This document shows positions 5,818 to 64,000 of a DNA stretch of 64,000 nt, in pieces. Origin of the DNA: Mobula hypostoma (lineage: Eukaryota); the NCBI RefSeq assembly GCF_963921235.1, contig NC_086097.1:53942001-54006000 (forward strand), read 5' to 3'. Position numbers and translations under genes: made by a program. The notes beneath the pieces were generated by a model. It did no database searches. It had not been told where the DNA came from and saw only the letters and a program-made list of their open reading frames with translations. The stretch's first letter is position 1; every line of letters starts with the position of its first letter.

Positions 5818-7644
5818 CTTCCCGACACCGTATTCCATCTGCCACTTCTTCGTCCATTTTCCTAATCTGTCTAAGTCCTTCTGTAGCCTCTCTACTTCCT
5901 CAAAACTGCCTGCTGCTCCACCTCTTTTTGAATCATCCACAAACTTGGCCACAAAGCCATCAATTCCATCATCTAAGTCACTGACATATAATGTAAAAAG
6001 AAGCAGTCCCAACACAGACCCCTGTGGAACACTACTTGTCAGCCTTCCTTGTGTCATCCTGCTTTTAGAATACTTCTCCCTCTTTAGGATGTATATATCC
6101 TGCTCCTTGCAAATTGGTCCTAGAAATACCAGCCATTGCTGCTCTGCAGTCATCCCTGCCAATGTTTCCCCCCCACCAGTCAATTTTGGTCCTATCTCAT
6201 GTTTCTATAATTTCCTTTACCCTACTGTAGCTTCTCCTTCTCAGACTTCAGGGTGCATTCTATCATATTATGATCACTGACTCCTAAGGGTTCCTTTACC
6301 TTAAACTCTCTTATCAATTCTGGTTCATTACACAACATTTAAGAAGGAAACATGAGTAGCATTGATTCCTTGCAAGAGAATGTATTGAATTTTTGGATGA
6401 TTTAATATTGACAAAGGTATGCACCTGCTGTTTTTACTCAACATGTTATGAATAAGGTATATTTTTGAAGTTAAAAATATAAATTCTTCATAAAATGCAG
6501 TCTCACCAGGTCAGAAAGCTATAAAGTTGATAGATATCTAATCGCTTCCTGTCAAATAGATAATACATAACTTCCAATCTTCCCTAAATGTGAATTTGGA
6601 TTCCCAGATTATTTACAAAATGGATTTGTAAATTGGAATTCTGCTACAGTATAATTGTATATACAGGTTTCTGGAATTACTGTGTATTTCAGGAATAGGA
6701 TGGCAACAAATTAATTCAAAATATTCAAAATGGTATCATGCTCCACATCTCCCATTCTACACATAAATCACTTTAACCTCAAGGGGACCCTACTTTGACT
6801 TTTTTCCCTTAAATCTGAAGACAGAGACATCCTAAATTCTTAAACACATATCAATTATTTTCACAGTTGCTCTTCAACCAAAGAGAAGCATGTTTTGAGA
6901 CAATGGTTTAAAAATACTATTGGCCCCCTGTGCAAAATAAGATGTGGAAGGGAGAAGGAGGCTAACGTCGGGAAATGCTCTACACCAATATCTATAAGTA
7001 TACTTAGAAAATATCCTTGGACCAAACAAATTCTATGGTTCTCTGCTGACTACTGGTACACTACCCTAAGGATATAGATGTGTAAATGTGATCCGTATGT
7101 GACCATAAATCAGTGGTCAAACTTTTATTGTTGGTTTCATTGAACATAATAGGTAATTAGAAGTAAACTGGTTTATAAATCAAAGAACTGCAGATGCTAG
7201 AAATCTGGAATGAAATCTGAATTTTCTGGAAGCTGACAGCAGACCAGGCAGCATCTGTCAAAAGAGTAACAGATGCAATAGTTCAGGTCAGATTCCCTTC
7301 ATCACAAGCTACTTGACCCCTGAGGGTTAAAGATCACCCTAATGTTATTTTCATCCAATGTTCACGCATATCAGCAAGTGAATGACTGCTTAATGATCAA
7401 AAGCAAGTATAATATAAGTCAACTGTTTTCCTTCCCCAGAATTGAGTGTTAATGCCAGTCAACTTTATATTAACCAAAAAAATTGTGTTTAATTCCGAAA
7501 AAAAACTCAGCTCCAGGACTATGTTTTCAATTTTCTGATGTGATTGGATAAATTGATACTGAGCAGAGGAAACTGCCGATTTTTAATGAGATCTGCTCTT
7601 TCAGATTTATAACCAAGGCTCTTTTTCCCCACCCCCCCACCCCC

Positions 7645-9025: not shown

Positions 9026-9200
9026 AAGAAGAGAAAATCTGCAGATGCTGGAAATCCAAGCAACACACACAAAATGCTGGAGGAACTCAGGAGGCCAGGC
9101 AGCATCTGGGAGAAGAGTACTGTCGACGTTTCAGGCCGAGACCCTTCGGCAGGACCTAGAAGCTGCCTGGCCTGCTGAGACCCTTCAGCATTTTGTGTGT
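9026..9200. mobile_element. Short PLE-tail fold-back element with hammerhead-like motif
   Basis: TSD gtttcatgcgagaca (9011-9025) / gtttcataagagaca (9201-9215). Minus strand reads cctgccgaagggtctcggcctgaaacgtcgac, followed by an inverted partial arm. Confidence 0.8.
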
Positions 9201-9349
9201 GTTTCATAAGAGACAGATGAGACTACAGTTCAGGTTTAAGATAGTGCTGGTAAAACCCAACGACTACTTATCGGTGGCAAGCAAAACAAAGAAAATAACT
9301 AAATACCTTATTACAAACATTTTCTCTGGTAAAATTCTTGGTAAACAAT

Positions 9350-10362: not shown

Positions 10363-10580
10363 GGGGGTAGAGAAGAGAGAAACATAAGGTGATAGGTGAA
10401 ACCCCTCCCCCTCCTTTTAAATCTACTCCTCATCTTTTTTTTCTCCAGACCTGCCGAAGGGTCTTAGCCCAAAAAGTCGACTGGACTTTTTTCCATAGAT
10501 GCTGCCTGGCCTGCTGTGTTCTTCCAGCATTTTGTGTGTGCTGCTTGGATTTCCATTATCTGCAGATTTTCTCTTGTTTG
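10363..10580 (+). mobile_element. PLE 3' tail with degenerate hammerhead motif
   Basis: cagacctgccgaagggtcttagcccaaaaagtcgactg followed by the shared gatgctgcctggcctgctg...ctgcagattttctc tail. Confidence 0.75.
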
Positions 10581-11995: not shown

Positions 11996-12144
11996 TTCAA
12001 GGGAGAACTACACCTATTCTATTTCTGGCATTCCCACAAACGCTGGTCTCACTTTAGGATCAAAATCAGGTTTATTATCACCAGCATGTGTCGTGAAATT
12101 TGTTAACTCAGCAGCAGTAATTCAATGCAAGACATGATAATGTA

Positions 12145-13932
12145 GAGGGAACGGGCAGGGACCCTATAAAGGAGGTGGGGGGAGGGTGGGAAGGAGAAGG
12201 CTGGTAGGTTCCAGGTGAAAAACCAGTAAGGGGAAAGATAAAGGGGTGGGGGAGCGGAAGGAGGGAGGTGATAGGCAGGAAAGGTGAAGAAGGAATAGGG
12301 GAAAACACAAGGGGTAGTAGAAGGAGGTGGAACCACAAGGGAGGTGATAGGCAGCTGGGGAAGGGGCAGAGTGACATAGGGATAGAGGAAGGGAGGGGGA
12401 GGGAATTACCGGAAGTTGGAGAATTCTATGTTCATACTAAGGGGCTGGAGACTACCTAGACGGTATATGAGGTGTTGCTCCTCCAACCTGAGTTTAGCCT
12501 CATCATGGCAGTAGAGGAGGCCATGTATGGACATATGTGAATGGGAGTGGGAAGCAGAGTTGAAGTGGGTGGCTACTGGGAGATCCTGTCTGTTTTGGCA
12601 AACGGAGCGGAGGTGCTCGACGAAGCGGTCCCCCAATCTGCGTCGGGTTTCACCGATGTAGAGGAGGCCGCACCGGGAGCACCGGATGCAATAGATGACC
12701 CCAACAGACTCACAAGGGAATGGCAACTCATCCTTGGAGCAACTATACCTCTTCCCACCCCGCCACATGTAAAAATGCCATTCCCTATTCCCAGTTCCTC
12801 CGTCTCTGCCGCATCTGCTCCGAGGATGAGGTTTTCCGTTCCAGGACATCTCAAATGTCCTCTTTCTTTAAGGATCATGTTTTCCCTTCTGCTGTCATCA
12901 ATGATGCCCTCACCCGCATCTCCTCCATTTCCTGCACTTCGGCTCTCACCCCATCCTCCCGCCACCACAACAGGGACAGAGTTCCCCTTGTCCTCACCTA
13001 CCACCCCACCAGCCTCCGGATCCAGCACATTATCCTCTGCAACTTCCGCCACCTTCAACGGACCCCACCACTAAGCATATCTTTCCCTCTCCACCCCTCT
13101 CCGCTTTCCACAGGGATCGGTCCCTCCGCGACTCCCTAGTCCACAAGTCCCTCCCCACGGATCTCCCACCTGGGACTTATCCCTGTAAGCGCAAGTGCTA
13201 CAACTGTCCCTACACCTCCTCTCTTGCCACCATTCAGGGCCCCAAATAGTTCTTCCAAGTGAGGCAACACTTCACTTGTGAGTCTGTTGGGGTCATCTAT
13301 TGCATCCGGTGCTCCCGGTGCGGGCTCCTCTACATCGGTGAAACCCGACGCAGATTGGGGGACCGCTTCGTTGAGCACCTCCGCTCCGTCTGCTACAGCA
13401 GACAGGATCTCCCAGTAGCCACCCACTTCAACTCTGCTTCCCACTCCCATTCAGATATGTCCATACATGGCCTCCTCTACTGCCATGATGAGGCTAAACT
13501 CAGGTTGGAGGAGCAACACCTCATATACCGTCTAGGTAGTCTCCAGCCCCATGATATGAACATAGAATTCTTCAACTTCCGGTAACTCCCTCCCCCTCCC
13601 TTCCCCTATCCCTATGTCACTCTGCCCCTCCCCCAGCTGCCTATCACCTCCCTCATGGTTCCGCCTCCTTCTACTACCGATTGTGTTTTCCCCTATTCCA
13701 TCTTCACCTTTCCTGCCTATCACCTCCCTGCTTCCCCTCCCCCACCCCTTTATCTTTCCTCTTACTGGTTTTTCGCCTGGAACCTACCAGCCTTCTCCTT
13801 CTCACCCTCCCCCCACCTTCTTTATAGGGCCTCTGCCCCTTTCCTCTTCAGTCCTGACAAAGGATTCTGGCCCGAAACGTCGAGCGATCTTTTCCACGGA
13901 TGCTGCCCGGCCTGCTGAGTTCCTCCAGTGTA
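12145..13932 (+). mobile_element. Penelope-like element with RT C-terminus, GIY-YIG endonuclease and an inverted pseudo-LTR
   Basis: YTSSHPATCKNAIPYSQFLRLCRICS (12720-13139) and GVIYCIRCSRCGLLYIGETRRRLGDRFVEHLRSV...VATHF (13259-13585). 12145-12716 is an inverted copy of 13275-13846. Degenerate hammerhead at 13849-13886. Confidence 0.92.
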
Positions 13933-13934
13933 TT

Positions 13935-14920
13935 GTGAGTGTTTATATGTACATTGAATAGATTTTAAATAGTAATAGTATTAAAAAGAAAGTGAGGTAG
14001 TCTTCATGGATTCAATGTCCATTTAGGAATCACATAGAAGCTGTTCTTGAGTTGCTGAGTGTGCCTTCAGGTTTCTGTACTTCCATCTATAGAAGTTTTT
14101 GAGTGTTTTAGTTGACCAACCAAATCTCTATAAACTCCAAATGAAATATAGCCTTGCCTTTTTGTTAGCTACATTGATATGTTCAGACCAGGTTAGATCC
14201 TCAGAGATACTGACACCCAGGAACTTGCAAATTGCTCACACCGAGCCCTGTATGAGGATTATTGCAACTTACCCTTCCTGAAGTCCACAATCAGCTCTTT
14301 TGTCTTACTGACGTTGAATGCACGGTTGTTGCTGTGACACCACTGAACTGATGTATCTCGCTCCTGTACGTCCTCTCATCTCCATCTGAGATTCTACCAA
14401 CAATGGCTGTATCAGCAGCAAGTTTATAGATGGTATTTGAGCTCTGCCTAGCCACACAGTCATGAGTGTCGAGGGAGTAGAGCAGTGGGCTAAGCACACA
14501 CCCCTGAGGTACGTCAGTGTTGATCATCAGCAAAGAGGAGATATTATCTCCAATCCACGCAGATTGTGGTCTTCCATTTAGAAAGTTGAGGATCCAATTG
14601 CAGAGGGGGGTACAGAGACCCAGGTTCTATATCTTATCGATCAGGTCTGTGGGAATGATGGTGTTAAACGGTGAGCTATAGTCAACGAACAGCATTCTGA
14701 CATAGGTGCTTCTATTGTCCAGGTGATTTAAGGTTGTGTGAAGAGCCATTGAGATTGCATCTGCTGTTGACCTATTGTGGTGATAGGCAAATCGCAATGG
14801 GTCCAGGTCCTTGCCGAGGCAGGAGTTCAGTCTAGTCATGACCAACCTCTCAAAGCATTTCATCACCATTGCTGTGAGTACTACTGGGCGATAGTCATTA
14901 AGGCAGCTCACACTACTCTT
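13935..14920 (-). mobile_element. Rex1/Babar LINE remnant (3' end at about 12060-12145; continues at about 16537-17090)
   Basis: ORFs 14627-14911 and 14291-14533 ([16 protein letters not shown]). ORF 16335-16631 (EVPTCFKNSIIIPMPKK) continues the frame across the CR1 insertion. Confidence 0.85.
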
Positions 14921-18189: not shown

Positions 18190-18975
18190 AGGTAAGGCAG
18201 CCCTCACCTGCGAATCTTTTGGGGTTACACACACAAAATGCTGGTGGAATGCAGCAGGTCGGGCAGCATATAAGGGCCGAGACCCTTTGTCAGGACTAAC
18301 TGAAAGTGTTTGAATCTTTTGGGGTTCTCTACCGCATCTGGTGTTCTCAATGTGGCCTCCTCAGTACTGGTGAGACCCAATGTAAATTGGGGGATTACTT
18401 TGTTGAGCACCTCCACTCCATCCGTTAAAAAGTGGAATTTCCCTTTGGCCCATCATTTTAATTCCTATCCCCATTTCTATTCCAACATATCAGTCCACGG
18501 CCTCCTCTTCTGCCATGATGAGGCCACTCCTGCACTCTCAGGGTGGAAGAGCAACATCTCATATTCCCTCTAGGTAGCCTCCAACCTGATGGCATGAACA
18601 TCAATTTCTCCTTCTAGTAAAATTCTTTTGTTACCCCCCCCCCCCCGGCTTGTTACCTCTCCTCCTCACCTGCCCATCACCTCCTCCTTCCCTTTCTCCC
18701 ATGGATATCTATCAGATTCCTTTGTTCTCCAGCCTTTGCCTTTCCTATTGATCACCTCCCAGCCTCTCATTTCATCCCACTGTCCCCCACCCACCTGGCT
18801 TCATCTATCACCTTTCAGCTTGTCCTCCTTCCCCTCCCCCCACCTTTTAATTCTTGCTTCTCCCCCTTCCTACCCAGACCTGATGAAGGGTCTCAGCCCA
18901 AAAAGTTGACTGTTTATTCATTTCCATAAATGCTGCCTGACCTGTTGAGTTCCTCCAGCATTTTGTGTGTGTTAC
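18190..18975 (+). mobile_element. Decayed PLE (GIY-YIG plus 3' tail with hammerhead remnant at 18875-18912)
   Basis: Homologous to 13260-13930; peptide LAHHFNS...VHGLLFCHDEAT. Confidence 0.85.
18227..18311 (-). mobile_element. 85-bp PLE-tail insertion nested in a PLE
   Basis: Perfect 15-bp TSD GAATCTTTTGGGGTT (18212-18226, 18312-18326). Confidence 0.85.
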
Positions 18976-20524
18976 ACATTCAAATGCCATATTGTCCTAT
19001 TCACTGACACAGGGCACAGGTAGAAATCCAGAGACTGGTCCTCTTGACTTCCTGTTTTTCAGCTTCCTATCTAGCTCCACATATTATCTCTACAGGACTT
19101 CATCTATTTTCCTACCTATATCATTAGTTTCAATATAAACTATGACTTCTGGCTGCTCACTCTTCCCTTTAAGTATGGTGTAGACCCGATCTGAGACATC
19201 CCAGGTCCTGGCATCTGGCAGGCAAAATATCATCCGGGAGTCTCTCTCATGTCCACAAACTCTCCTGTCTGCTCCCCTAACTATTGAATCCTCTGTCACC
19301 ACTGCACTCATCTTCTTCCCCCTTCTCTTCTGAGCCACAGAGCCACACTCAGTGCCCAAGAACAGTTAACCATGGCTTTCCTCTGGTAGGTTGCTCCCCG
19401 CCAACAGAATCCAAAGCCATCTGCATGTTCCCTTTCCCTCTCCTGACAATCAGCCGGCTACCTACCTCTTGCAACTTAGGGGTGACTACCTTTCCTGTAG
19501 CTCTTATCTATCTCTTATCTCTTATTCTCCCAAACGGGCTGAAAATGTCATCCATTTCCAGTTCTCTTATACAGTCTGTAATGAGCAGCATCCAGATGTA
19601 CTTCTTATCTATGTAGCAATCAGAGAGACCGGAGTTCTCCCAGATCTCCCACACTTTGCAAGAGGAGCACATCACTATCCTGGGATCCATTCTCCCTACT
19701 CTAGCTAGGCGCTAATAAAGAAAGCAGCCTCAACCAAGCTTCTGCCTCCTCTTCCCAAAGCCTCTTGAGCCCAAGCCCCAGATCCCCATTCCTCACTGGA
19801 AAAGGATGGGATTACAACCTGCACTCATTAGACACTGTTGAGCAAACAAAACCAAAGTAGAAGCACATTTTCCTTTCCTAAAAGTAATAGTTTTCCCAGA
19901 ACACAAACGTAAAAATCACAATCCTCTCGCATCTTCTGCTTCTCAATACTTCCTGACAAACAAGAGGAAAAAGGTTCGACTGCTGTGGAGAACATCTTTC
20001 ATTATAATTCATGTGGTGCATTGTGAAATTGTTTACAAGCTATGAAGTTATGGAATGGCAGCTTTTCAATCCAAATAGCTTGAATTTAATATACTTTAAA
20101 AAAAATTGTAGTCTACACCATCCCTCCCCCAACCAGTGCCACCTTTCATTATAAAGTTCTTTTTTAAAATGCAGATTTGGGTTTATTGTGCTAATAACAG
20201 TAGGAGAACGGGGAGAAATGCACTGTAACTTGCTATTGTTACAGTTAAAGCTTTTCCTGACCTGACTTTTACAGTTCACTGAAACCATTTAACTTGCACA
20301 TAAACAGACATTACCCAGTGATTACAAACTAATCGTACACATTTCCCTTGCACGGATCAAGGATCTCCTGGTAGACTTACATTAAAGCAAAAGAATGAAT
20401 CGGGGGTTGAAGAAAAGATCTTTTGTCCAATGATGTATACTATTATCTAAATTAAATATTAGAACAAATATTACAACAAATCTGCCTCAGTGTTACAAAA
20501 GTTTAGTTGAAGTACCTTTCCCCT

Positions 20525-20860: not shown

Positions 20861-21039
20861 AATTGGCTTTGCATATTTGATTTATGACATATTGACATTA
20901 CACAAGATATTTCAAGATCACAGTTTCATCAACAATGGAGAAATGCGGAGATTCAAAAGATTTTAAGCAGATACCATGGTGGGGAAAGCAGAGGTCAAGA
21001 AACAAAAGTAAAAGAATTATTCAAATAAACTTTTTTCAC

Positions 21040-21575
21040 CTAACACACACAGAAAGCTGGAGGAACTCAGCAGGTCAGGCAGCATCTGTGGAGAGAAATA
21101 AAAAGTCAACGTTTTGGGCCAAGACTCCTCATCAGGACTGGAAAGGAAAGGGGGAGGAGGAAAGAAACCAGAATGGGAAGGTGGGTGAGGGGGAAGTCGT
21201 ACAAGGAGTGCGGGACAGTGAATGGGTGGGTGGATGAAGTGAGAAGCTGGGAGGTGAGAGGTGAAACCAGGTTTGGGGGACAGTGAGTGGGTGGGTAGAT
21301 GAAGCGAGAAGCTGGTAGGTGAAACCAGGTTTTGGGGACAGTGAGTGGGTGGGTGGATGAAGTGAGAAGCTGGGAGGTGAGAGGTGAAACCAGGTTTGGG
21401 GGACAGTGAGTGAGTGGGTGGATGAAGTGAGAAGCTGGGAGGTGAGAGGTGAAACCAGGTTTAGGGGACAGTGAGTGGGTGGGTGGATGAAGCGAGAAGC
21501 TGGTATGTGAAACCAGGTTTGGGGGACAGTGAGTGGGTGGGTGGATGAAGCAAGAAGCTGGGAGGTGAGAGGTGG
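21040..21575 (-). mobile_element. PLE 3' tail with hammerhead motif (21104-21140) and an internal tandem expansion
   Basis: Minus strand reads cagtcctgatgaggagtcttggcccaaaacgttgact plus the shared tail. Confidence 0.8.
21212..21575. repeat. Minisatellite, about 6 copies of a ~56-65 bp unit
   Basis: Unit gggacagtgagtgggtgggtggatgaagtgagaagctgg(gaggtgaga)ggtgaaaccaggttt repeated head to tail. Confidence 0.92.
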
Positions 21576-23494: not shown

Positions 23495-23620
23495 AACATG
23501 AGAAAGTCTGAAGATGGTGGAAGTCCAGAACCACAGTTGGAGGAACACAGCAGGTCAGGCAGCATCTATGGAAATGAATAAACAGGTAATGTTTCGGGCC
23601 AAGACCCTTCCTCAGGACTT
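23495..23620 (-). mobile_element. Short PLE tail ending at the hammerhead motif
   Basis: gtttcgggccaagacccttcctcaggact at the boundary, preceded by the shared tail. Confidence 0.7.
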
Positions 23621-26124: not shown

Positions 26125-26800
26125 CAGTCAGGTGAAAACAGGTGTTTCTTTGTGAAATCAGCACGTGCAGATTGGAGGACTGCCTTGTCGAGCAACTTCT
26201 GTCACAACATGCAGAATTTCCCAGAGGCCACCCAATTTTAATTCCATCTCCCATTCAAATAGGTCAGCCCATGGCCTTCTCTACTGCCACAATGAGGCTA
26301 CTTTCAGGTTGGAGAAGCAACACCTCATATTACGTCTGAGTAGCCTCTAACCTGATGGCATGAACACCGGTTCCTCTAACTTCTGGTATTTTTTCTGCCT
26401 GACCCTTCCCTTTATTTCCATTTGCCATTCTAGCTCCCCTCTTACCACTTCTCTTCTCTGCACCTGCCCATCACCTCCTGCTGATGCCCCTCCTCCTTCC
26501 CCTTTTTCCATGGTCCACTCTCCTCTCCTATTAAATTCCTTCTTCTTCAGCCCTTTACCTTTTCCACCTATCAACTCCCACCTTCTCATTTCATCCCTCT
26601 TACCCCACGCACCCACCTCCCCCTCACCTGGTTTCACCTATCACCTACCAGCTTCCAGTTTCCTCTCTCTCTCCTTCTTATTCTGGCTCATTCCGCAGTC
26701 TTTTCCTGTCCTGATGAAAGGTCTTGGCCCAGAATGTTGACTGTTTATTTCCCTCCTCAGATACTGCCTAATGTGCTGAGTTCCTCCGGCATTTTGCATG
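26125..26800 (+). mobile_element. Decayed PLE 3' portion with hammerhead remnant (26706-26743)
   Basis: HGLLYCHNEATFRLEKQHLILRLSSL and ctgtcctgatgaaaggtcttggcccagaatgttgactg. Confidence 0.82.
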
Positions 26801-34340: not shown

Positions 34341-34946
34341 CTGTTCCAGAACAGAAAGACAACCCTTAAAATCGAATTTACCCATGTAAGCGCGCACATC
34401 TCTGGACTAAACTAATGTATGAAAGCCGACCGACAGAAGCCAACAAAGAGCCGCCTTGCAAAAAGCTCGCGCTCGACAAAAGAAAAGCTGTGTACAAAAG
34501 CAATGACTGCAAACTACAAATCATTGCACGAGCAAAGGACTAACTGGGAAAGGCGGCTGGCTTCAGAAAATGTTTTTGTCACCTGCCAGGAACACCCTCC
34601 CCTAGCATTTAAATCGAAACATGAACTATAAACAGTACTAGTTGGATAATTCTAAAACGGCATACATATATATACGACTATCGACTGATGTCATAATGTT
34701 TTTAATTTAAGCAGCGCAATAGATATAATTTACATTTTAAAATTATACACATGGTTGAAAGGTGTCCCAAAGAATATTGGCAATCAACAACGTCCCCCGT
34801 GGCCAAAATGTTACACAGAAACTTGGTGCAAGAATTACCCGTGTGTACATTTCACATAAACTCCCGCCATGTTCTGCTATCACTGTAAATCAAACAAAAA
34901 TCAATAATCTTAAATGTTTCTTGTAGAGTGATTGCTGGTCCAGTAC

Positions 34947-35298
34947 CTTCATGGTGGAAGCTCCTCACGGTGTTGGCCCGACTGGTGGATCTCTCGGGAT
35001 ATTCGAAGCTGATGTCGTGGGTGACCTCGTCCCCAGACTGGAGTCTGTAGAGATCCAGCATGTACTGGGGAACCACGGCAGATTTACTGGGCTGCGGGCG
35101 CCGGTGGAGTCCGAACATATTGAGTAAAGTGGCCTCGAATTCCCGCAGCAGTTCATGGTTTTGCGGAGAGCGACGTCCACCCGCCTGGTTTTGTTCCGCA
35201 AACTTTTTCCTTCCTTCCTCTGGTATTAGACTAGCACTACCTCCCAGTAAGACTTGGCATAATAAAATTACCATCAGCATTCGGTTACCAGGAATCAT
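34947..35298 (-). CDS. BMP4: BMP4 first coding exon (signal peptide and N-terminal prodomain)
   Basis: Translates [20 protein letters not shown]...[11 protein letters not shown], the BMP4-type N-terminus. Acceptor ttccgcag|AGACACCATG (exon starts 35305). Donor GAAG|gtactg with GT at 34946-34945. 352 coding nt, phase 1. Confidence 0.97.
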
Positions 35299-35952
35299 GG
35301 TGTCTCTGCGGAACAAAACAAGCAACAACAGAAAAAAAAGAATGAGAATTAAGAGCGATCTTCAGCAATCCACGCCCCAGAAAGAGAGCGCACGACACAG
35401 AAACAGAGAGTGGGAGAAGAGGTGTAATTACTTGGTCTCTCTCGGTTACAGTTAAATAGCCCATAATCAGGCAGATAGCACCATCTTGTTACTCTTTGTG
35501 TTTTCACTATCTTAGTAATTATCTTGGGCTGGTTTCTTTAGGAGCGACACAGAAAGTCTGAAACGGGCATCTTACCAAGCGGCCCATAATTGTTGAGAAT
35601 GGTGGTGATGGTATGATGTGTGGGTGTGTGTGTGGTGGGGGGGGGGTAACATTCCTGAAGTGTTAAAATCGTTTTACTTTGATTGTGTACACTTTCACAT
35701 CGAACAAGTTGATTATCTCCAGTCTATCGGTACATTTCCTTAATTGCTTATTGACAACCAAGGCACAAGTGCAAAAGCCATACTCTCACCCAACAGAGAG
35801 CTACAATTAATCATGCAGGAAATGATCGCAAGTACATGCTACAAGAGAAATCAAATAAATGGTTAAACACACACATATTTTTAGTGTACAAACAAATATA
35901 AATAAAATCCCACCACAACCCATTAGGAAAAAGTATAAAAAGTTCTACTCAC

Positions 35953-39145: not shown

Positions 39146-39624
39146 AAAAGCCAATCTAGAACTGCAATTTTTTTTAAATGTTGGGAATACTCAGTCAGTC
39201 AGGCTGCTTCTGTAGAGAAAGAAATAGTTAATGTTTCATGTTAATGGTATGCTGAGGATTTCTAGCACTTTCTATATTAACTCCCACAGTACTGACGAAT
39301 AGGGAGTTCCAGGATGCGTGGGAGACCCAGCAATACATTTCCAAATCATGAAGATGAGCAGCTTGGATGGAACTTTCCCTTCTACCGACTGTCCTTATCC
39401 TTCTTGGTGACAGAGAGTATGGATTTGCAAGTCGGAGTAGCTGCAATCGACAGTGCATACTGTAGCAACGGCATGCTGGTTGTGGAGGTAATGAATGCTT
39501 TGTGATGGATTGGGTGATAGTTGCTGATAACTGAACTTACAGCAGAAAACTAGGACCTTTGGTCAACCAGTCCACGCTGACCATCAAATACCAATTTACA
39601 CCAACCTTACACGGATCCTGTTTT

Positions 39625-40639: not shown

Positions 40640-41055
40640 GTTTTATTGCCCCAATACTGCCATCAATTCCTTCCAGGTTGTTTCACTCACTCTACACATA
40701 TTTGTGAGTTGAGAGTTAAAAACAACAGTTATCACTTCAATTTCCACCATTTGAGGCAGAAATAACTATCTTTTATGGTGCTAACGTCATTACAAGCACA
40801 ACAAGCATTGCAGAAATCCCAGCCTTGCTGAAGCAAATTTCACTCAGACTTACCCAGTCCAATTTCATGATGAACAGTATTATTGTCAAGTAATATTTGC
40901 TGCCTTGTTAAAATAAGTTTAAAATACCTTTGATTTTTCATTTCTGCATAAAACCAGTACAAATGTGTCCATTAACACACACAAAATGCTAGATGAACTC
41001 AGCAGGTCAGATAGGATTGATAAAGGTAAATCAACAGCTGATATTTTGGGCCCAG

Positions 41056-42868
41056 GTCCCTGCTGCACCTAGTGACCCTATGATCTCCGTCTCAGAGGCC
41101 GATGTTAGGCTGTCTTTAGAGCGAGTGAACCCTCGCAAGACGGAAGGTCCCGATGGAGTACCGGGTAAGGCTCTGAAAACCTTTGCCAACCAATTAGCGG
41201 GAGTACTCAAGGGCATTTTCGACTTCTCACTGTTGTGGGCGGAAGTTCCCACTTGCTTCAAAAAGGCAACAATTATACCAGTGCCTAAGAAGAATAATGT
41301 GGGCTGCCTTAATGACTATCGCCTGGTAGCAGTCACATTGACAGTGATGAAATACTTTGAGAGGCTGGTTATGACTAGACTGAACTCCTGCCTCAGCAAG
41401 GACCTGGATCCATTGCAATTTGGTTATCTCTATAATAGGTCAATGGCAGATGCAATCTCAATGGCTCTCCACATGGCCTTAGACCAAAAAGACAACACAA
41501 ACTTTCTTGCTTTCAAGAAAGAGATGGATAGAGCTCTTAAAGATAGTGGAATCAAAGGTTATGGGGATAAGGCAGGAACTGGATCCTGATTGTGGATGAT
41601 CAGCCATGATCACAGTGAATGGCGGTGCTGGCTCGAAGGGCCGAATGGCCTACTCCTGCATCTATTGTCTATTGTCAAACACCTACGTCAGGATACTATT
41701 CATCGACTATAGCTCAGCATTTAATACCATCATTCCCACAATCCTGATTGAAAAGTTGCAGAGCCGGGGTCTCTGTACCTCCCCCTGCAATTGGATCCTC
41801 AACTTTCTAATCGGAAGACCACAATCTGTGCGGATTGATGATAATATCTCCTCCTCGCTGACTATCACCTCAGTGGTGTGTGCTTAGCTCACTGCTCTAC
41901 TCTCTATATACACATGACTGTGTGGTTAGGCATAGCTCAAACACCATCTATAAATTTGCTGATGATACAACCATTGGTAGAATCTCAGATGGAGACAAGA
42001 GAGTGTACAGGAGTGAGATATACCAACTAGTGGAGTGGTGCCGCAGCAACAACCTGGCACTCAACGTCAGTAAGACGAAAGAGCTGATTGTGGACTTCAG
42101 GAAGGGTAAGACGAAGGAACACACACCAGTCCTCTTAGATGGATCAGAAGTGTAGAGAGTGAGCTGTTTCAAGTTCCTGGGTGTCAAGATCTCTGAGGAT
42201 CTAACCTGGTCCCAACATATCGATGTAGTTATAAAGAAGGCAAGACAGCCGCTGTACTTTATTAGGAGTTTGAAGACATTTGGCATGTCAAGAAATACAC
42301 TCAAAAGCTTCTATAGTTGTACCATGGAGAGCATTCTGACAGGCTACATCACTGTCTGGTATGGAGGGGCTACTGCACAGGACCGAAAGAAGCTGCAGAA
42401 GGTTGTAAATCTAGTCAGCTCCATCTTGGGTACTAGCCTACAAAGTACCCAAGACATCTTCAGGGAGCGGTGTCTCAGAAAGGCAGCTTCCATTATTAAG
42501 GACCTCCAGCACCCAGAGCATGCCCTTTTCTCATTGTTACCATCAAGTAAGAGGTACAGAAGCCTGAAGGCACATACTCAGTGATTCAGGAACAGCTTCT
42601 TCCCCTCTGCCATCCAATTCCTAAATGGACATTGAATCTTTGGACACTACTTCACTTTTTTTTTTAAAATACAGTGTATGCAGTATTTCTGTTTTTGCAC
42701 ATTTTAAAACCTATTTAATATATGTATACTGTAATTGATTTACTTATTTATTATTCTTTAATCTTTTTCTCTCTCTGCTAGATTATGTGTTGTATTGAAC
42801 TGCTGCTGCTTAGTTAACAAATCTCACGTCACATGCCAGTGATAATAAACCTGATTCTGATTCTGATG
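41056..42868 (+). mobile_element. 5'-truncated Rex1/Babar LINE with (GATTCT)n tail
   Basis: ORFs 40993-41589, 41606-41887, 41880-42155 and 42159-42584 carry Rex1 RT motifs. Ends gataataaacctgattctgattctga. Confidence 0.92.
41503..41675 (+). mobile_element. CR1 3' end nested in Rex1
   Basis: FKKEMDRAL...GIKGYG and tail gggccgaatggcctactcctgcatctattgtctattgt, flanked by a CAAAC duplication. Confidence 0.8.
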
Positions 42869-42869
42869 C

Positions 42870-43660
42870 TGATTAACCAAGACTGGAAAGGAAAAGGATA
42901 GAAGCCAGAAGTAAAATGTGGAGGGAGGGGGGAGGTGGGAAGGGGAGGAAAACAGGCTGACATGTGATATTAAAAACGCAAACATGAGGAATTCTGCAGA
43001 AGCTGGCATGTTGCTTGACATGTGATATGTGAGTCCAGGTGAGGGGGAAGATATCTAGTTGTGGGAAGGGAGGAGGATGAAAGGGAATGATGTGAGAAGC
43101 TACAAGGTGATAAGTAGAAGAGGCAAAGGGCTGAAGAAAGAATGCGATAGGAGAAGACAGTAGACCAGGGAATAAAGGGAAGGAGGTTGGTCCAGAAGAG
43201 AATGATGGGCAGGTAATGAGGATGTGGGACGGGAAGAGAAGGGATGAGAGGTGTGGGGCAGAAGAGAGTGGATATCAGAAGTTAGTGAAATCAATGTTCA
43301 TGCTGTCAGGTTGTAGACTACCAAGATGGAATATGAGGTGTTGCTCTTCTAACCTAACTTTAGCCTTATAAAGGTAGTAGAGGAGGCCAAGAAAGACAGG
43401 TTGATGTGGGAACAAGAAGTGACATTGAAATGGGTGGCCACCACGAGATCCTGGCTGTTGTGGAGGACAGAGAAAAGGTTCCTGATGAAGCAATCCCCCA
43501 ATCTGTATTGGGTCTCACCAATGTAGAGACAGTCACTCCGGGAGCACCAGATGCAATAAGTGACCCAACAAACTCACAGGAGAAGCATCACCACGACTTT
43601 GACGACTGTTTAGGGCCCTGAATGGTGGTGAGGGAAGAAGTGTAGGGGCACGGCTGGTAC
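42870..43660 (-). mobile_element. Decayed PLE (GIY-YIG and 3' region; terminal tail displaced to about 40972-41055)
   Basis: ORF 43275-43493 KAKVRLEEQHLIFHLGSLQPDSMNIDFTNF. Confidence 0.82.
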
Positions 43661-44126
43661 ATAGCACAGTTGCAGAGAATCATTGAGTGGTGGCTGAGGG
43701 AAAGAGAAATCTTCTACCTGTTAAGTTGGGTGGGTGGGGGGAGGTGGGCTGGATGAGATGACAGCAGACATGAGAAATTGAGAAGATACAGGTGAAGACG
43801 TACATTTTAATGTATATCTGATTTGCTCATTAAGTTTGTAACTCAAAAATTGGCCCGCCATTGATATATTCAAAGATATCAAAGATAGTGAGAAAGTTAT
43901 ACTAGATGTAGATATCTTCATCTGACAGTATTCTTTTGGGTTCATTCTTATTAACTTCCATTCCACATTTATCAGTGTGCTATTACAAAAGCATATAGAA
44001 TGGGAATTCTTGTTTGAAGTTGTTATGTGGGGAGGTTTAGTCACTCACAACAAGAGAGGTTAGAATATAAATTCTTAAAGTAAGGTTTGAATATGTAGAA
44101 GAAATTCTCAGTTGTTGAACATGATG

Positions 44127-44217
44127 CCCTGATGAAGGGTCTCGGCCTGAAACGTCGACTACTTATTCTTTTCCATAATTGCTGCCCGGCTGATTTCCTC
44201 CAGCACTTTGTGTGCGT
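44127..44217 (+). ncRNA. Minimal hammerhead ribozyme core (44129-44160) in a short PLE tail
   Basis: CTGATGA AGG gtctcgg CCT GAAA CGTC gact has an intact catalytic core, stem II and GUC triplet. The 5' strand of helix I is missing. Confidence 0.7.
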
Positions 44218-44402
44218 TTCTCATTTATTGAATGCCATTTAGGAAGAGTGAAAATGTCATGTGTTGGGTCCTGCTGCAGTATTTCTCATTGCTGACTTCT
44301 CCTTAATGATTTGATGTGTAGTGGTTTGATTGTTATCATGCTCAGTCTAGAGGCCAGAGCTGTGGTTTTTATTTTATAATTATTCTTGAGTGTAGTTAAA
44401 TA

Positions 44403-45219: not shown

Positions 45220-45654
45220 GAAAATATATAAATATCTGTGAATAGTTTGTTTGCCATTAAACTGAATGTTTAATCAATCAAAAACACAAGAGATTCTGCA
45301 AATGCTGGAAACCTGGAGGTAGATACACAAAATGCAGGAGAAACTCAAATCAGATAGTATCTAGGGTGGGAATAAGCAGTCGACATTTCCTTAATCATGT
45401 GTAACTAGAAGAATTTATTAACATTATTTTCAGCTGAGAGGATCACATTTTATAGAATTCAATGTGGAACCCATCAGACCACAGTTGTTGCCAAAATGTT
45501 GTTGTTGTCATGGCTGCCTGTGACTCTAATTGCCTGGATTAGACAATTGAAAGAGTTGCTTCAGTTTGGGAGGTTTGCTACATAAAGAATGCAAGCAAAG
45601 TACTTTGATATCCTGAATTACAAATTGTATATTACCTGATATTCTGAATTATAA

Positions 45655-49819: not shown

Positions 49820-50450
49820 TCTATAGCTGCACAGTGGAGACTATCCTGCCTGGTGCAATGGCCAGGAACGGAAGACTACAGAAAGTGGTGGACCAGCCCA
49901 ATCCAGCCCAGCCAAAGCCCTCCCTCCCACTGAATGCAGTTACATGGAGTGTTGTCACAAGAAAACAACATCCATCGTCAAAGACCACCACCACCATCCA
50001 GACCATACCCTCTTCCTGCTACTACCAGAAGTATGGTAATCCAGAAGTGCCGAGGCCTTAGGTCCCACACCACCTGGTTCAGAAACAGTTATTACCCTAA
50101 ACCATCAGTCTCCCGAATTGGTGTGGATAATTTCATTCACTACTACTCTGAACTGATGCTACAATCGACAGACTTATTTTCAAGGATTCTTTACAACTCA
50201 TTTTATCAGTATTATTTTTATTTGCACAGTTTATTTTGCACACTGGCTGCTTGTCAGTTTTGTCTGTTTATATACAGTTTTTCATAAAACTATTGTATTT
50301 TTTCCCCCTGTAAACGCATGCAAGGAAAAGAATTTCAAAGTAGTATATGGTAACATTACAGGTGCTGCCGGGCCTGCTGAGTTCCTCCAGCATTTTGCAT
50401 GGTAACACATGCTAATTTTGATGATAAATTTACCTTGAACTTTGAACTTT
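49820..50450 (+). mobile_element. Old Rex1-type 3' fragment
   Basis: GLRSHTTWFRNSYYP and a gaactttgaacttt tail. Confidence 0.7.
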
Positions 50451-51370: not shown

Positions 51371-52478
51371 ATTAAGCCAAGGCAAACAGAGCACTACAGG
51401 GACAATGTTAAACTCCACATATATGGTATCTGGGATCATGATTGAACCCACATCCTTTGAGCTATGAAGCAGCAGCACTAATTACTGCATTGCCCATATA
51501 ATAATCCAAAGTTCAATTAGAAAATGCAGGAAGTATCTATCTGATCAAGCGGCACCTATGGAGACAGTAACAGGTTAATGTTTCAAGTCAACGATTTTCC
51601 ACTATGAGAATATTTCTATAGTATTTTTCATGATTGGAGTGTTCATAGTATTTGTATAGCACACTATGTGTTCACAGTGCACATAGGAAACTGACCCTTC
51701 ATCCTTCTATTAAAAAATATCTCAGGATTTGGCCATCACTGCCAGGTCCAGCATTTATTACCCATTCCTTATTAGACAAGTACAGCTGTGATCGTCTCTG
51801 GTCCCGTGGCCTTCACTCACGACCACTGCAGAACCTACCCAGAAACTCTTTTCTCAGGGCTCAGGTAGCTCTGTCAGCAGTGATGCTACAAAGTCACTCT
51901 GAGTGACGGGCTTCAATGCCCTTCACCCTGTGTACATTTCATCGTCTTTAACACCCTTAGTGCTGGGGTGTACAAAATGCATGGGAGACCCTGGAAAGTA
52001 CAGAGCCACAGTTGTACCTTGGTATAAATATCCAAGAATATCTGACTGGAGCAGCTCAGATCTGAGATATCTGCCCTTATTATCCAGGGCACAGAATATA
52101 AGCGTTGGGAGGTTATGGTACAACTATGTACTGTGTTCCGTTTATGTAGATGCAGAAGAGATTCATCAAGATGTTGCTTGTGATTAAGCATTAAAACTTT
52201 GAGGATAAAACGGATAGACTTGGTTTGTTTTCTTTTGAGCAGAGAAGTCTGAATTGTGACCCGATAGAGTTTCTATGTACAAAATGGTGAGAGGCAAAAG
52301 TAGTAAGAATCTTTGCTTCTCAGCAAGTTTTAAGGTAAGAGGAAGAATGACTTCACCCTAAAGATAGTTTAAACAGAACTGCCATGAATTTTTTGTATGA
52401 TTTTGCAGCCACAAGACCTGTCTTTTGTAATGAAGAATAAGCTGAGTTTTCCCATTCAGTGCTTAGTCCTCCAACATT

Positions 52479-52792: not shown

Positions 52793-52984
52793 TCCTCCAA
52801 CATTAATCATTGGGTATGTCCTGTCCCTTTGACAGGATAGACACACATAGAGTGAATGACCATGTGGCACTCAGGAGCGAGAGAGTAGCACCAGGCAAGG
52901 AAAGTTCCCTCTGCTTCCTGAGCTCCTTCCGCATTCTGTGTGTGTTGCACAGAGGTGGTGTTCATGGGTTCAATATCAATTTAG

Positions 52985-54289: not shown

Positions 54290-54485
54290 CAGTGACCTCT
54301 CTATGCTCAGCTGTATACACAAACTCTTGGAACAGTATCTTATCTTTTAATTAAAGTGATTACTACTTTCTGGATTGAATAATAAGCTCAAAAGTTACAG
54401 ATCATTAGCATGTCCGACCATCTCACCACCTTCCTTTTCAGATAAATATTCTGAACCTTTTAAATCAGAATCAGGTTTTTTATCA

Positions 54486-54679
54486 ACAAACAAGAAAAAA
54501 TCTGCAGATGCTGGAAATCCAAGCAACACATACAAAATCCTGGAGGAACTCAGGAGGCCAGGCAGCATCTATGGAAAAGAGTACAGTCGACGTTTCGGGC
54601 TGAAACTCTTCCTCAGGGCTCATTTCCATAGATGCTGCCTGTCCTGCTGAGTTCCTCAAGCATTTCGTGTGTGTGTTGC
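54486..54679. mobile_element. PLE-tail fold-back element
   Basis: TSD tcaggttttttatca (54471-54485) / tcagatttattatca (54680-54694). Inversion junction directly after the hammerhead remnant (about 54617). Confidence 0.8.
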
Positions 54680-54717
54680 TCAGATTTATTATCACTACCT
54701 TATATGAAGTGAAACTT

Positions 54718-54881
54718 AAACACGAGGAATTCTGCAGATGCTGGAAATTCAAGCAACACACATCAAAGTTGCTGGTGAACGCAGCAGGCCAGGCAGCATC
54801 TCTAGGAAGAGGTACAGTCGACGTTTTGGGCCGAGACCCTTCGTCAAGACTAACTGAAGGAAGAGCTAGTAAGAGATTACT
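54718..54881 (-). mobile_element. PLE tail, second subfamily, with hammerhead-like motif (54815-54851)
   Basis: Perfect 11-bp TSD AAGTGAAACTT (54707-54717, 54882-54892). Confidence 0.85.
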
Positions 54882-54892
54882 AAGTGAAACTT

Positions 54893-56165: not shown

Positions 56166-56753
56166 ATCATTTTCCAACAGAATGTAATTTATGCTTTCAG
56201 CTAATGCTTACAATTGGTTCAATATTTGGCATGAGACTGGTATGATGGTTTCTTTGAAAATGTTTCAATTGGCTAAGTAAGCAAAAGCTACCAAACTGGA
56301 AAAGTTGAAGGAACAAGAGAAGAGAAACTACTAAATATGCACATTTAGTTTCATCTCAGTTAAAATTTTATTTTGTTATTAATTTTAATAATGACAAAGG
56401 ATTCTACAGATAGGATTAGATTTATTCATCCGGGATTCTTTGGTAGATTCAGCATTACACACCCTTTGCCTCGGAGATAATAGCTTTCTCTTTCTGCTTG
56501 ACAAAATAGAGAAGTATGCTCAATTGTAAAAATCTTGATGCCATCTAGTGGCTATAAAGTATTGCCAATTTTCAATATGCAAGATCTGTTACCATTAATT
56601 AATAACTTCTGAATATGGGCCATAGTAACACAATTCAGGTGTTTGTTATCCAGCATGGTTTCCTGTAAAAAAACATTCAACAAGTTTATTTCACTCAACT
56701 TGCAATCAGAAGACACTCTCTATAGACCCTAGTACCTCTTTGTACGCAAGTTA

Positions 56754-56976
56754 CACACATAAAAGTTGCTGGTGAACGCAGCAGGCCAGGCAGCATCTCT
56801 AGGAAGAGGTGCAGTCGACGTTTCAGGCCGAGACCCTTTATCAGGAAGCCTGATGAAGGGTCTCGGCCTGAAACGTCGACTGCACCTCTTCCTAGAGATG
56901 CTGCCTGGCCTGCTGCGTTCACCAGCAACTTTCATGTGTGTTGCTTGAATTTCCAGCATCTGCAGAATTCCTGTTG
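56754..56976. mobile_element. Near-perfect fold-back PLE-tail element with two opposed hammerhead motifs
   Basis: 92-bp arms 56754-56845 and 56849-56940 with a 3-nt loop. TSD tgtacgcaagtta (56741-56753) / tgtacgtaagtta (56977-56989). Confidence 0.92.
56850..56882 (+). ncRNA. Minimal hammerhead ribozyme core
   Basis: CTGATGA AGG gtctcgg CCT GAAA CGTC gactg. Confidence 0.7.
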
Positions 56977-57622
56977 TGTACGTAAGTTAGTTGTGTTCTG
57001 GATGGTTGGCAAAGAAAGCAGTGTTCTGGTTAGTGATATGTGGCAACCAGAACCACTTAACATATGTGTGACATCCATCAGCTAAGTGACTTCAATCTCC
57101 ATGATATAACAGCACACATTTGATAAACACAGAGATTATACTTGATCAGTATATTCTACATGGGACACAAGATAAGTTTCCTTTCAAATGTCACCAAAGT
57201 AGATTGTGCAGTTTGCAGTAGCTGAACACGTGCATACAGGTCAAGATAAACCACGTCACAATATACAAATATGTATATCGAGCGTGGAATGCTTCATAAG
57301 ACTGGAATGGTTAAGATCAACAGATTTCAGCATAAGGGCTGCTCGGTTTGCAATGCACAATGTGGCCAGGAGATGAAACTTTTGGATCATAAGAACTGCA
57401 GTTCTAGGTTGTGCCAAAGCCCTTGTAGAATCAGAGAACCAGTATCACAGGAGGCTGTGTCTATGCTGGTTCTCAAACCACAGCAACCTACTGTTTCCAA
57501 CCCCAGCCCTTCCTCTGTAGCCTTGCAAACTTTTCTTATCATATATTTACCCAATACCCTCTTGAAGATAATGATTTTAAAGATAAAGATAACTTTTATT
57601 TGTCACATATACATTGAAGCAT

Positions 57623-59411: not shown

Positions 59412-59530
59412 AAACAAACAAGAGAAAATCTACAGATGCTGGAAATCTGAGCAACACACACAAAATGCTGGGTGATCCCAGCAGGTCAGGCAGCATCTAT
59501 GGAAAAAATATATAGTCGACATTTCGGGCC
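59412..59530 (-). mobile_element. Short PLE tail truncated within the hammerhead stem II
   Basis: Shared tail ending tagtcgacatttcgggcc. Confidence 0.75.
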
Positions 59531-59559
59531 AGAGAAAACAAGTTGACCACAACTTTTGT

Positions 59560-61356: not shown

Positions 61357-63294
61357 TTATAGAGGAGACTGAAACCCTTTGTCTCTGGAGCCATTGTCAT
61401 TTACTGGACTTTCACACCTTTACTCAAGTGCAGTGACCAGTATTTGATGCAGTGATTTCATTTATGCCAAAGCACTGCTTATAAAGATTTAACAATCCTT
61501 TTTGCACTTCTGTGTTTTGCTCATGAAGTCCAGGATCCCATATCCCTTGCTAATCATTCTTTGTCACATCCTATTATTTCAAAAAATCTGTGTATATTTA
61601 TGCCCAGATGCCCCTCTTCCTGCACACTCTTAAAAATTTGCTATTAAGTATATGTTACTTATTCTTTCTACTACAATAATATTGTCCTATATCTTCCAGT
61701 GAAAATTTCCCAAAATGACACATTTCTCATGCAGTCTTCGCAATTATATCCTGCAGTTGCATTTAGGTAAGCATCAATCAGATCTAATTATTGCCTTCTA
61801 AGAAAATCTACATTTCCCAAATCAGATCCTAAAGAATTACAAGTGATTATCAGTATTCATTAAAGGAACTTTCAAAAACAAACTCTAAAACCAGATGTTA
61901 TAACCATACAAATTTACTTTTAAGCAAAAAAAATATAATGTATCCATGGTGATGCTATTGCAGATAATGGAATTTTGCTTCAAACACAAGTTCGGCAGAA
62001 AGCCATACAGAGTTGCATCATGTCCAATGAGAAAATGAATGATGTGGTCACACCACCAACATTAAAGGCGTGAACATACTCCATTTGAAGAACAAAGTTT
62101 CAATCGCTCTTTGACGTTCAATCAACCCTCCAGAGAGCAACACGCTTATATTTTTAAGTGATACAATGTGGAAAAAAGGATACTTCAGCTTTTTGCTCAT
62201 TACTTTCTAGCGGCATTATCCTCAGACTCCCTGAAGCTCCAAGAGGCAGGAAAATTATAAGTTAATTTGTCAGTGGAAGATATATTATCCAGATTGCCTA
62301 CAAAAAGACAGTTACAGACTGACTGAAATGTTTGCAACTGCACATGGCTGCTGTTACACAGTAGATGGCCAACATACCTCAATTCCCACCCACCCTGCTC
62401 TCTACCTTTTTTAAATGGATTTGCCATGATTTCTGTACTCAGATTAATATTGATTCTGAATTAAAACAATTATAAAATAATAAAAATTAAATTATTACTA
62501 AAGTAATGCATCCATTCTGAAAAAAGTAAAATCTAGAGAACATGTTCTAAAAGTGTGAAAATGAAACTATGCAACTTGACCCATGGGCTTCTCCAAAATT
62601 TTGCTTTCGTTTCCAATTTATAACAAAATGCTGCATTTCACTGCATGTGTAAATTGCTTATTCAGAGATCCCCTCCTTGAAGATATTCTGCTTCACCATG
62701 TTCTAATTACATTTGTGTTTATTACTTACCCCATTTTCTGGCCCTTTTAATGTTTGATCTTACACTTAAGACCCATTCTCACAACTATATCTCCTTTCTA
62801 GACTTGAGCTGGAATTTCTTTCACAGATTCCTGTTTAAGTTTCATCCTTCCTGCTTCATATCCACCCACCATCACCAATAATCTCTTTATTCTAAATATT
62901 CCTCAAATCTTTGCTCTCATTCTTTCAAGAATTTTATGTCCCTCCAACTAAAATTTTCTTCATTTCTTTTTTGTTCTGTATAGGTTGCTTCTGAACCTCT
63001 TTGTCAAACCACGTTGCTCTTCCTTTCTGTCCTTGGATGGAGAGAGAACCTCCTTAACTTTACTGTAAATTTTCTTATCTATGAGCCTCCTTTTTGATTC
63101 ATCCCTTCCCATCCCTGAGATAAATAGCTTGACATCTATTAAATATCTCAGACTTCTATATTTCTTTGGCCCGGTTCAGATCTTAGAGGCATTTTTGTAA
63201 AATTATCACCCGCCAATCAAATTTCCACTTTCTACCTCAACAAGGACTTCACTTCTCTATGGTTGCTAGATCAGAACTTTTTAAATAAGTTTTT

Positions 63295-63435
63295 CCCTTC
63301 CCCCCAACCTTTTTATTCTAGCATCTTCCCTCTTCCTTCTCAGTCCTGATGAAGGGTCTCTGCCCAAAACATGGACTATTTATTCATTTCCATAGGTGCT
63401 ATCTGACCTGCTGAGTTGCTCCAGCATTGTGTTTT
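63295..63435 (+). mobile_element. PLE tail with hammerhead remnant (63341-63378)
   Basis: cagtcCTGATGAagggtctctgcccaaaacatggact. Confidence 0.75.
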
Positions 63436-63537: not shown

Positions 63538-63730
63538 ATGAGGAATTCCGCAGATGCTGGAAATTCAAGCAACACACATCAAAGTTGCTGGTGAACGCAG
63601 CAGGCCAGGCAGCATCTCTAGGAAGAGGTACAGTCGACATTTTGGGCCCAGACCCTTCGTCCCTGACAACTGTACCTCTTCCTAAAGATGCCGCCTGGCC
63701 TGCTGCGTTCACCAGCAACCTTGATGTGTG
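63538..63730. mobile_element. PLE-tail fold-back element, second subfamily
   Basis: Perfect 13-bp TSD CAGCATTGCTAGG (63525-63537, 63731-63743); inverted arms. Confidence 0.88.
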
Positions 63731-64000
63731 CAGCATTGCTAGGCTTCATATTCAACAGGTCATCATCCCTCATTGTCAATGTAGAGTCACAGAGCCAGAG
63801 TTATACAGGCTGAAAATAGATCATTCAGCCAACTCATTCATGGCAACCAAGGTGCCAGCTGACCCATCCTATCTGCCTTTCTTTTGGCCCATATCCTTCT
63901 AAATCACTCCAATCCCTATACCTATCTAAACATCTTTTCAACTTTGTCATTGTTCCTGCCTCTACCATTACCTGCAGCAACTTGTTCCATACACCCAGTC

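Follow-up and report, generated by a model that had tools for sequence, protein, structure and literature searches.

Minimal type I hammerhead ribozymes have been described from the Penelope-like elements (PLEs) of metazoans, including the Neptune, Poseidon and Xena elements of fishes, and thousands of solitary copies can occur in one genome (Cervera and De la Pena 2014, PMC4209133). Stem III of such a motif cannot close in a monomer, so that a dimer is needed (PMC4209133; PMC6765202, citing Lunse et al.). No cartilaginous fish is among the rows consulted in Table S1 and Fig. S3 of that survey (PMC4209133). Penelope is listed among the repeats of the whale shark, the available text of a manta preprint does not mention it, and searches of literature listings for PLE minimal hammerheads in rays found no such description.

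The vertebrate PLE clades reported are Neptune and Poseidon (bioRxiv 10.64898/2026.07.22.740005). A CX2-5CxxC linker marks the Neptune and Nematis clades, and PLE tails, 30-40 bp in length, are often present at one end only (Craig et al. 2021, PMC8557442). For the Poseidon element of the anole (PAc), the protein is reported to nick AT-rich DNA on both strands and to prime at two internal RNA sites that bound the tail; uncut RNA is the template, and the hammerhead cuts only when the protein is added (Frangieh et al. 2024, PMC11167929). In the Penelope element of rotifers the ends are inverted, the duplications measure 8-10 bp and the tail is 31 bp long (PMC3846280).

The motif described here recurs in a 64-kb stretch of ray DNA (hereafter the window). 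All 16 sites listed earlier fall on matches of a profile made from eight window copies, which gives 29 matches at E<=1 and 26 at E<=0.001 (the eight seeds being included by construction), as against one match (E 0.28) in the reversed window used as control. The recurrence reported in the earlier note is therefore real, and its figure of about 15 copies, or one per 4 kb, was an undercount: the 29 pieces occupy 2,687 bases, 4.2% of the window. The 10-mer CTGATGAAGG by itself is not enriched in the window (10 matches against 6.65 expected, with 16 of 100 shuffles as high), and its match at 43482 was rejected as a family copy because it sits within a GIY-YIG frame. Motif scans of viral contigs and of metagenome contigs found nothing.

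A majority sequence was derived from 18 aligned copies, omitting the 11 weakest or tail-only matches. It consists of a 5-bp helix I (CAGUC/GACUG), the core CUGA(U/C)GA, an extra A, a 3-bp stem II (GGG/CCC) that closes a loop of 6 nt, GAAA, then ACGU as the palindrome and, with C17, the GUC site. The extra base, between positions 9 and 10.1, is A in 16 of the 17 copies with a letter there, and the 10.1/11.1 pair is G-C in 9 of 16 copies and G-U in 6. Across copies 61.5% of helix I cells are paired, and 71.7% of the whole structure, compared with 25-43% in slid registers, the structure itself being derived from the same sequences. The majority fits the published PLE consensus, with which it shares CUGANGA followed by an extra base, G10.1-C11.1, GAAA, the palindromic 15.2/16.2, the 5-bp helix I and a U-rich upstream region (PMC4209133), in agreement with the original identification of a PLE-borne minimal type I hammerhead with a palindromic stem III. 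Stem II is shorter here (3 bp and a possible U-G) than the often larger helix II of that description. The features on which the identification had been staked, the core, the GAAA and helix I complementarity, are kept in the majority; the proposed covariation check found none of the eight pairs of helix I and stem II changed on both sides among the 18 neutrally decaying window copies, and RNAalifold predicted zero pairs on the same alignment. Support for the fold, as judged from sequence, is its fit to the published consensus, not compensatory change.

Rfam finds no hammerhead family in the window at E<=1, so that ribozyme annotation would miss the motif. To that extent the claim that annotation would not flag these repeats stands; a family so abundant is nevertheless unlikely to escape a de novo repeat library. 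Because solitary minimal hammerheads from truncated PLEs, in massive numbers and with opposite-strand pairs, are a pattern already published (PMC4209133) and found here too, the idea of an unflagged repeat family in its own right is not supported. A sub-threshold Rfam match to mir-3926 (52 bits, gathering 82; 56808-56886) was rejected as no more than the inverted pair 56845/56849 of family copies; inverted pairs of this kind could give rise to long double-stranded RNA or be miscalled as microRNAs.

The longest PLE piece in the window (12141..13945) consists of a plus-strand copy at 12720-13945 and an inverted partner at 12746-12141. The plus copy encodes, in order, a thumb-like region, a CX3CxxC linker and GIY-YIG (~13250-13585), followed by a 264-nt pyrimidine-rich spacer, a hammerhead with G8A and a short tail. 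The order of GIY-YIG, spacer and motif is repeated at 18205..18978 (+; G12A, short tail), at 26167..26800 (+; decayed hammerhead and tail) and, on the minus strand, at 40969..43650 (GIY-YIG at 43564-43278). In the last the hammerhead appears to be split by a later RT-bearing insertion of ~1.8 kb and to resume at 41061, a joining that we infer; an apparent 3' end at 42882 is due to a later insertion and was excluded from counts. Both the frame that precedes the motif at 18875 and the one before 26706 are interrupted by frameshifts and stop codons. The motif does lie downstream of GIY-YIG frames, as the earlier note held, at a distance of 264, 264 and ~320 nt after the end of the frame and not directly 3' of it.

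A GIY-YIG Pfam match at the cut-off was obtained in the window frame, and the frame at 12699-13590 contains both the linker and the thumb-like region, the linker being present in its protein relatives as well. Among 59 candidates, 22 longer relatives of the GIY-YIG frame were found, the best 89% identical; those named come from Hypanus sabinus, Mobula hypostoma and Leucoraja erinacea, and several hold RT motifs and GIY-YIG in one chain. The 64-kb window contains no PLE RT core and no full-length PLE copy. We place the motif at the 3' pseudo-LTR end of a PLE that has a GIY-YIG domain and a linker of the Neptune type. Since this linker marks Neptune and Nematis, and Neptune and Poseidon are the clades reported from vertebrates, the element is likely a Neptune, an assignment that draws on the linker and on the published clades. 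With the Neptune EN+ elements of Craig et al. (PMC8557442) it shares the C-terminal GIY-YIG, the linker, heavy 5' truncation, an inverted 5'-truncated partner and a 30-40 bp tail at one end; it differs from them in its 9-15 bp duplications and its insertion into AT-rich DNA that is not microsatellite, and Nematis has the same linker. Pieces of the GIY-YIG frame are also contained in ray gene models named as isoforms of DIPK1C, mucin-2, ABHD14A and ULK1 (P0001, P0004, P0021, P0022), where they represent exonisation or annotation error. A stretch of 58-65 nt of the spacer is present as four head-to-tail copies at 21201-21576, upstream of the copy at 21136.

The motif precedes a shared tail, as had been claimed, although the tail does not have the single length of ~90-110 nt then given to it: it ends either ~96 or 130 nt after position 2.1. 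We take the 34-nt difference to be the optional 30-40 bp tail known from PLEs. The focal copy (44128..44218, +; profile E 6e-24, one of the seeds) is a PLE end truncated at hammerhead position 2.1 and carrying the short-form tail. Its core, from C3 (44129) to C17 (44156), is intact by position scoring; within its hammerhead (44129..44161) stem II is closed by G-U at 10.1/11.1, and the 3' strand of helix I is present and the 5' strand lost. It is bounded by a 15-bp target-site duplication with 13 positions alike, at 44105..44119, followed by 8 nt of filler, and at 44218..44232.

Four short insertions are head-to-head pairs, and in all four one arm has the long end and the other the short end, with direct repeats of 10-15 bp as boundaries. 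The pair at 56745..56978 joins 56845 (minus, short tail) to 56849 (plus, long tail), with arms 96% complementary and a 13-bp duplication at 56741 and 56977; its core is intact only on the plus arm, and helix I is lost on both. At 9027..9208, 9153 (minus, long tail, A6C core) is paired with a short tail piece at 9157 (plus) within a 15-bp duplication. At 54489..54687, 54617 (minus, long tail) is paired with a short tail piece at 54620 (plus), with a duplication of 10-15 bp, and the minus arm has an intact core and mismatches in stem II and helix I. The fourth, at 63538..63739, joins 63661 (minus, long tail) to 63667 (plus, short tail) within an exact 13-bp duplication. The two motifs of such a pair lie on opposite strands, an arrangement that would give a long hairpin rather than a dimer. 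The inverted arm at 12141-12746 shares 93% identity with its partner; its terminus is just short of the hammerhead, not at a tail end.

Target-site duplications across copies measure 9-15 bp. Direct repeats score at least 9 at 7 of the 13 boundaries tried (null 13 of 996); at the other six no convincing duplication was found, 23616 being weak (score 7) and the others belonging for the most part to longer or older copies whose 5' ends are guesses. Further direct repeats are an exact 15-bp repeat at 18294, belonging to a short minus-strand copy (18226..18311) that lacks the 3' half of the core and is nested in the GIY-YIG frame of the PLE at 18205..18978, and a 9-bp repeat at 50358. Copies with duplications of their own also comprise the solo copies 54717..54878 (minus; 30 nt of upstream sequence, a 5-bp helix I, C3U and G12A, 11-bp duplication) and 23495..23619 (minus; starting 4 nt before C3, helix I broken on its 3' side, long tail, weak 10-bp duplication), as well as 59415..59531 (minus; truncated in loop II, long tail, 10-bp duplication). 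PLE ends at 12060-12140, 42820-42880 and 54470-54710 lie in or beside one other repeat, which starts with AATCAG runs; this could reflect a target preference, or just abundant AT-rich DNA.

The remaining copies include 10402..10580 (plus; ~50 nt upstream, A6C and G12A, long tail), 21035..21257 (minus; upstream spacer, G12A, short tail), 63293..63432 (plus; ~50 nt upstream, G12A, short tail), an old diverged copy found by the profile at 7186..7306 (minus) and further old pieces at 9944-10042, 39176-39238, 45284-45389, 50358-50401, 51521-51585, 52914-52953 and 58854-58941. There is no strong family match between 26800 and 39176, while the flanks carry one per ~2 kb, so that the region of a minus-strand TGF-beta family gene (33502-35361; Pfam TGF_beta and propeptide, two coding exons) is free of these insertions in a window otherwise rich in retroelement fragments around it. 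We take this gene to be BMP2/4-like.

Position-by-position scoring found a complete hammerhead in none of 17 copies; the core is kept in four, and at least 4 bp of helix I in three. The copies at 44129 and 56850, singled out earlier as intact, do have all their core letters; each retains a single contiguous base pair of helix I, because the copies start at position 2.1 and the bases upstream are foreign. The local fold at 44129 is not a hammerhead (z -0.89). C11.1-G12 is a CpG, changed by C>T in six copies and by G>A in seven, so that even the catalytic G is hit, and GAAA survives mostly where the C was changed instead. An intact-looking core in a dispersed copy should thus be read with caution as a chance outcome of CpG decay. 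As every scored copy is broken, the dispersed copies are likely the defunct remains of insertions by an element of known kind, passengers rather than working ribozymes. The A6C change is common to two separate copies (9153, minus, and 10450, plus), which suggests a source element with a non-canonical core that was still producing copies. Position 2.2 of helix I is A instead of U (CAGAC) in the plus-strand copies at 10450 and 18879, with CAG kept and one pair broken; this may be a subfamily trait.

The family extends beyond the window. Four public contig sets were aligned to the copy at 54700-54900 (201 nt) at 85% likeness: X1, a DNA run possibly from the window's own sample, with some differences uncounted; X11, from another organism; and X13 and X17, contigs of two runs only guessed to be RNA. 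The aligned contig records, which are not copy numbers, amount to 97,499 in X1, 21,763 in X11, and 8,790 and 5,880 in the two runs guessed to be RNA, in keeping with the prediction of a genome-wide family. At the two core mutations of the reference copy all four sets show the canonical base (C3 at 98-99.8% of depth, G12 at 68-90%), and no majority change was found at any other core or helix I position among the rows listed. At the N7/G8 CpG, tolerated changes outnumber harmful ones (16.3 against 6.8% in X1, 16.0 against 6.8% in X11); at C11.1/G12 the figures are 37.5 against 19.8% in X1 and reversed, 8.9 against 31.6%, in X11, for a reference that carries A12. Control CpGs at 15.2/16.2, at 17/1.1 and at one tail position are even in X1, and that of loop II is uneven. 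The excess weakly hints at selection on the source elements. G12A reaches 20% in X1 and 32% in X11, compared with 7-16% for most other motif CpG changes in X1 (C11.1U aside), and may reflect reference bias or source copies with a dead core. Loose contig ends pile up at 54717-8 in all four runs and at 54751-2 in three, among 24 of 810 rows listed; the two positions are 34 nt apart.

What is observed, namely a motif of this anatomy linked to GIY-YIG, duplications, 3' ends of two kinds, head-to-head pairs and broken copies, is best explained if the copies are 5'-truncated, decaying 3' pseudo-LTR insertions of a likely Neptune GIY-YIG PLE, whose source hammerhead is likely of the minimal type I, active only as a dimer and probably helped by protein; we consider this reading highly probable. 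The PLE protein would nick AT-rich DNA and prime reverse transcription within an RNA that has not been cleaved, using one of two sites that lie ~96 and 130 nt beyond the hammerhead. Synthesis would usually stop early, leaving the tail plus part or all of the hammerhead; where both target strands are primed, two copies would result head to head, one of them with the long end and the other with the short. Inserted copies would then decay neutrally, fastest at the CpGs of the motif.

Extending the anole Poseidon model to the PLE clade of the ray is our inference by analogy, and the window agrees with the model in its two 3' ends, its paired long and short arms and the near absence of pieces from the cut site: at most one of 29 (63667) starts there, as expected if uncleaved RNA is copied. 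Cleavage products as templates were rejected on this count, and no loose-end row lies at the cut site among the 24 of 810 listed. The PAc and ray families have in common two priming sites ~100-140 nt past the hammerhead that define the tail, and copies that retain an uncut motif (PMC11167929). PAc belongs to a different clade, its ORF starts in stem II and its priming takes place in an AC-rich stem loop, whereas the short end of the ray element lies in a GU-rich run, with a conserved tail frame not established.

A first alternative concerns activity and is compatible with the identification itself: the hammerhead could be vestigial even in source elements and kept as a part of the pseudo-LTR, which we regard as rather unlikely. 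Cleavage by the source motif is predicted from its fit to the consensus, and the ViennaRNA energies count against it. The monomer is predicted to fold as a rod that pairs the core with the cut-site strand (-12.7 against -9.1 kcal/mol), and the double-hammerhead dimer (-17.1 kcal/mol) is less stable than two collapsed monomers (-25.4) or the dimer minimum (-33.7); ViennaRNA ignores the tertiary energy of the core, and the result agrees with the low activity reported for such motifs. A second palindrome, GUCGAC (16.2 to 1.3), lies over the cut site and pairs intermolecularly at -10.3 kcal/mol compared with -1.7 for ACGU, and could give an inactive dimer. The A6C shared by two copies and the frequent G12A are in line with a vestigial motif, as are anole hammerhead mutants whose insertion in vitro was not impaired (PMC11167929) and Naiads that thrive without a hammerhead (PMC8557442). 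On the other side, the majority is a perfect match to the motif in two organisms, the tolerated CpG changes exceed the harmful ones at N7/G8 in X1 and X11 and at C11.1/G12 in X1 (a weak signal, reversed at the latter in X11), and the dependence of the anole motif on protein means that poor folding alone does not imply a dead ribozyme (PMC11167929).

The start points of the copies bear on a second alternative. Among 15 5' ends defined by a junction (short copies, placed by eye from the duplication or partner junction), seven fall within 8 nt, from -4 to +3 relative to C3, and the other eight are scattered from -30 to +48. A scan gives p 0.006, or 0.02 when seven less certain ends are added; counting the 56845/56849 pair once, the values become 0.03 and 0.09. 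Coming from the other side, the inverted arm at 12141 breaks off at this point too, and the highest-ranking rows of both X1 and X11 include a peak of loose contig ends at 54851 (-4), its loose parts being long and mixed and the peak confounded by other subfamilies whose spacer diverges there. Such a cluster would be expected if the short copies were a separate non-autonomous element, comparable to a SINE or a retrozyme, with a transcription start of its own at helix I and with the PLE protein as its means of moving. We find this improbable. Solo copies do bear their own duplications, and non-LTR retrozymes, which like these copies are non-coding and PLE-derived and carry a type I hammerhead, have been reported as PLE derivatives, with one chondrichthyan among the hosts (bioRxiv 10.64898/2026.07.22.740005). 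But in longer copies these tail types run on without a break from the upstream spacer and GIY-YIG, more than half of the 5' ends are scattered, and most copies that begin at the hotspot lack the 5' strand of helix I. Retrozymes moreover form head-to-tail arrays with complete hammerheads in consecutive units, whereas the copies in the window are solo or head-to-head, none is complete and the window repeat listings contain no head-to-tail array of the motif.

Finally, it is scarcely credible that individual dispersed copies, for instance the one at 44129, which lies upstream of the BMP-type gene, were domesticated to cut host transcripts. Although 44129 and 56850 retain all core letters and the family is abundant in the two runs guessed to be RNA, with G8A near 1%, helix I cannot form at either site, 56850 and its inverted partner would fold into a near-perfect hairpin that hides the motif, intact cores are expected by chance when CpG decay hits C11.1 and not G12, and the RNA label is a guess for data whose depth is dominated by a few contigs.

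With the copies read as truncated PLE ends, the simplest reading of the cluster may be run-off at the 5' end of the RNA. The site reads both as an initiator-like TCAGT and as a polypyrimidine-CAG acceptor. In the Penelope element of Drosophila virilis an intron extends up to the 5' end of helix I (PMC4209133), and transcription starts 46 bp before that intron (PMC2377424). It is possible, and we propose it tentatively, that the clustered ends mark the 5' end of the PLE's own RNA, either a start at TCAGT or a splice acceptor at the 5' strand of helix I. Two other accounts of the cluster were set aside: fold-back of the cDNA at helix I (the DNA hairpin is weak, -2.4 kcal/mol, and stalling at an RNA hairpin would leave ends 3' of it), and splicing of the template (no sequence is common to the fillers that precede the clustered ends, and no joint into the CAG occurs among 15 of 43 joints listed).

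Taken together, this is a real and abundant motif of a known kind, in a likely new host group. As identified here, it adds a ray to the hosts of PLE minimal hammerheads and shows these to be missed by Rfam. The copies of this vertebrate family are numerous, their duplications clear, their 3' ends of two kinds and some of them paired in inverted orientation, which allows the anole in vitro model to be checked in a second PLE clade. If the clustered ends do mark the RNA 5' end, the abundant short copies would be complete run-off cDNAs primed in the first pseudo-LTR, like retroviral strong-stop DNA; the start site would decide whether helix I, and hence the ribozyme, can form; and the ray genome would be a natural archive, of very large size, of where PLE reverse transcription starts and stops.
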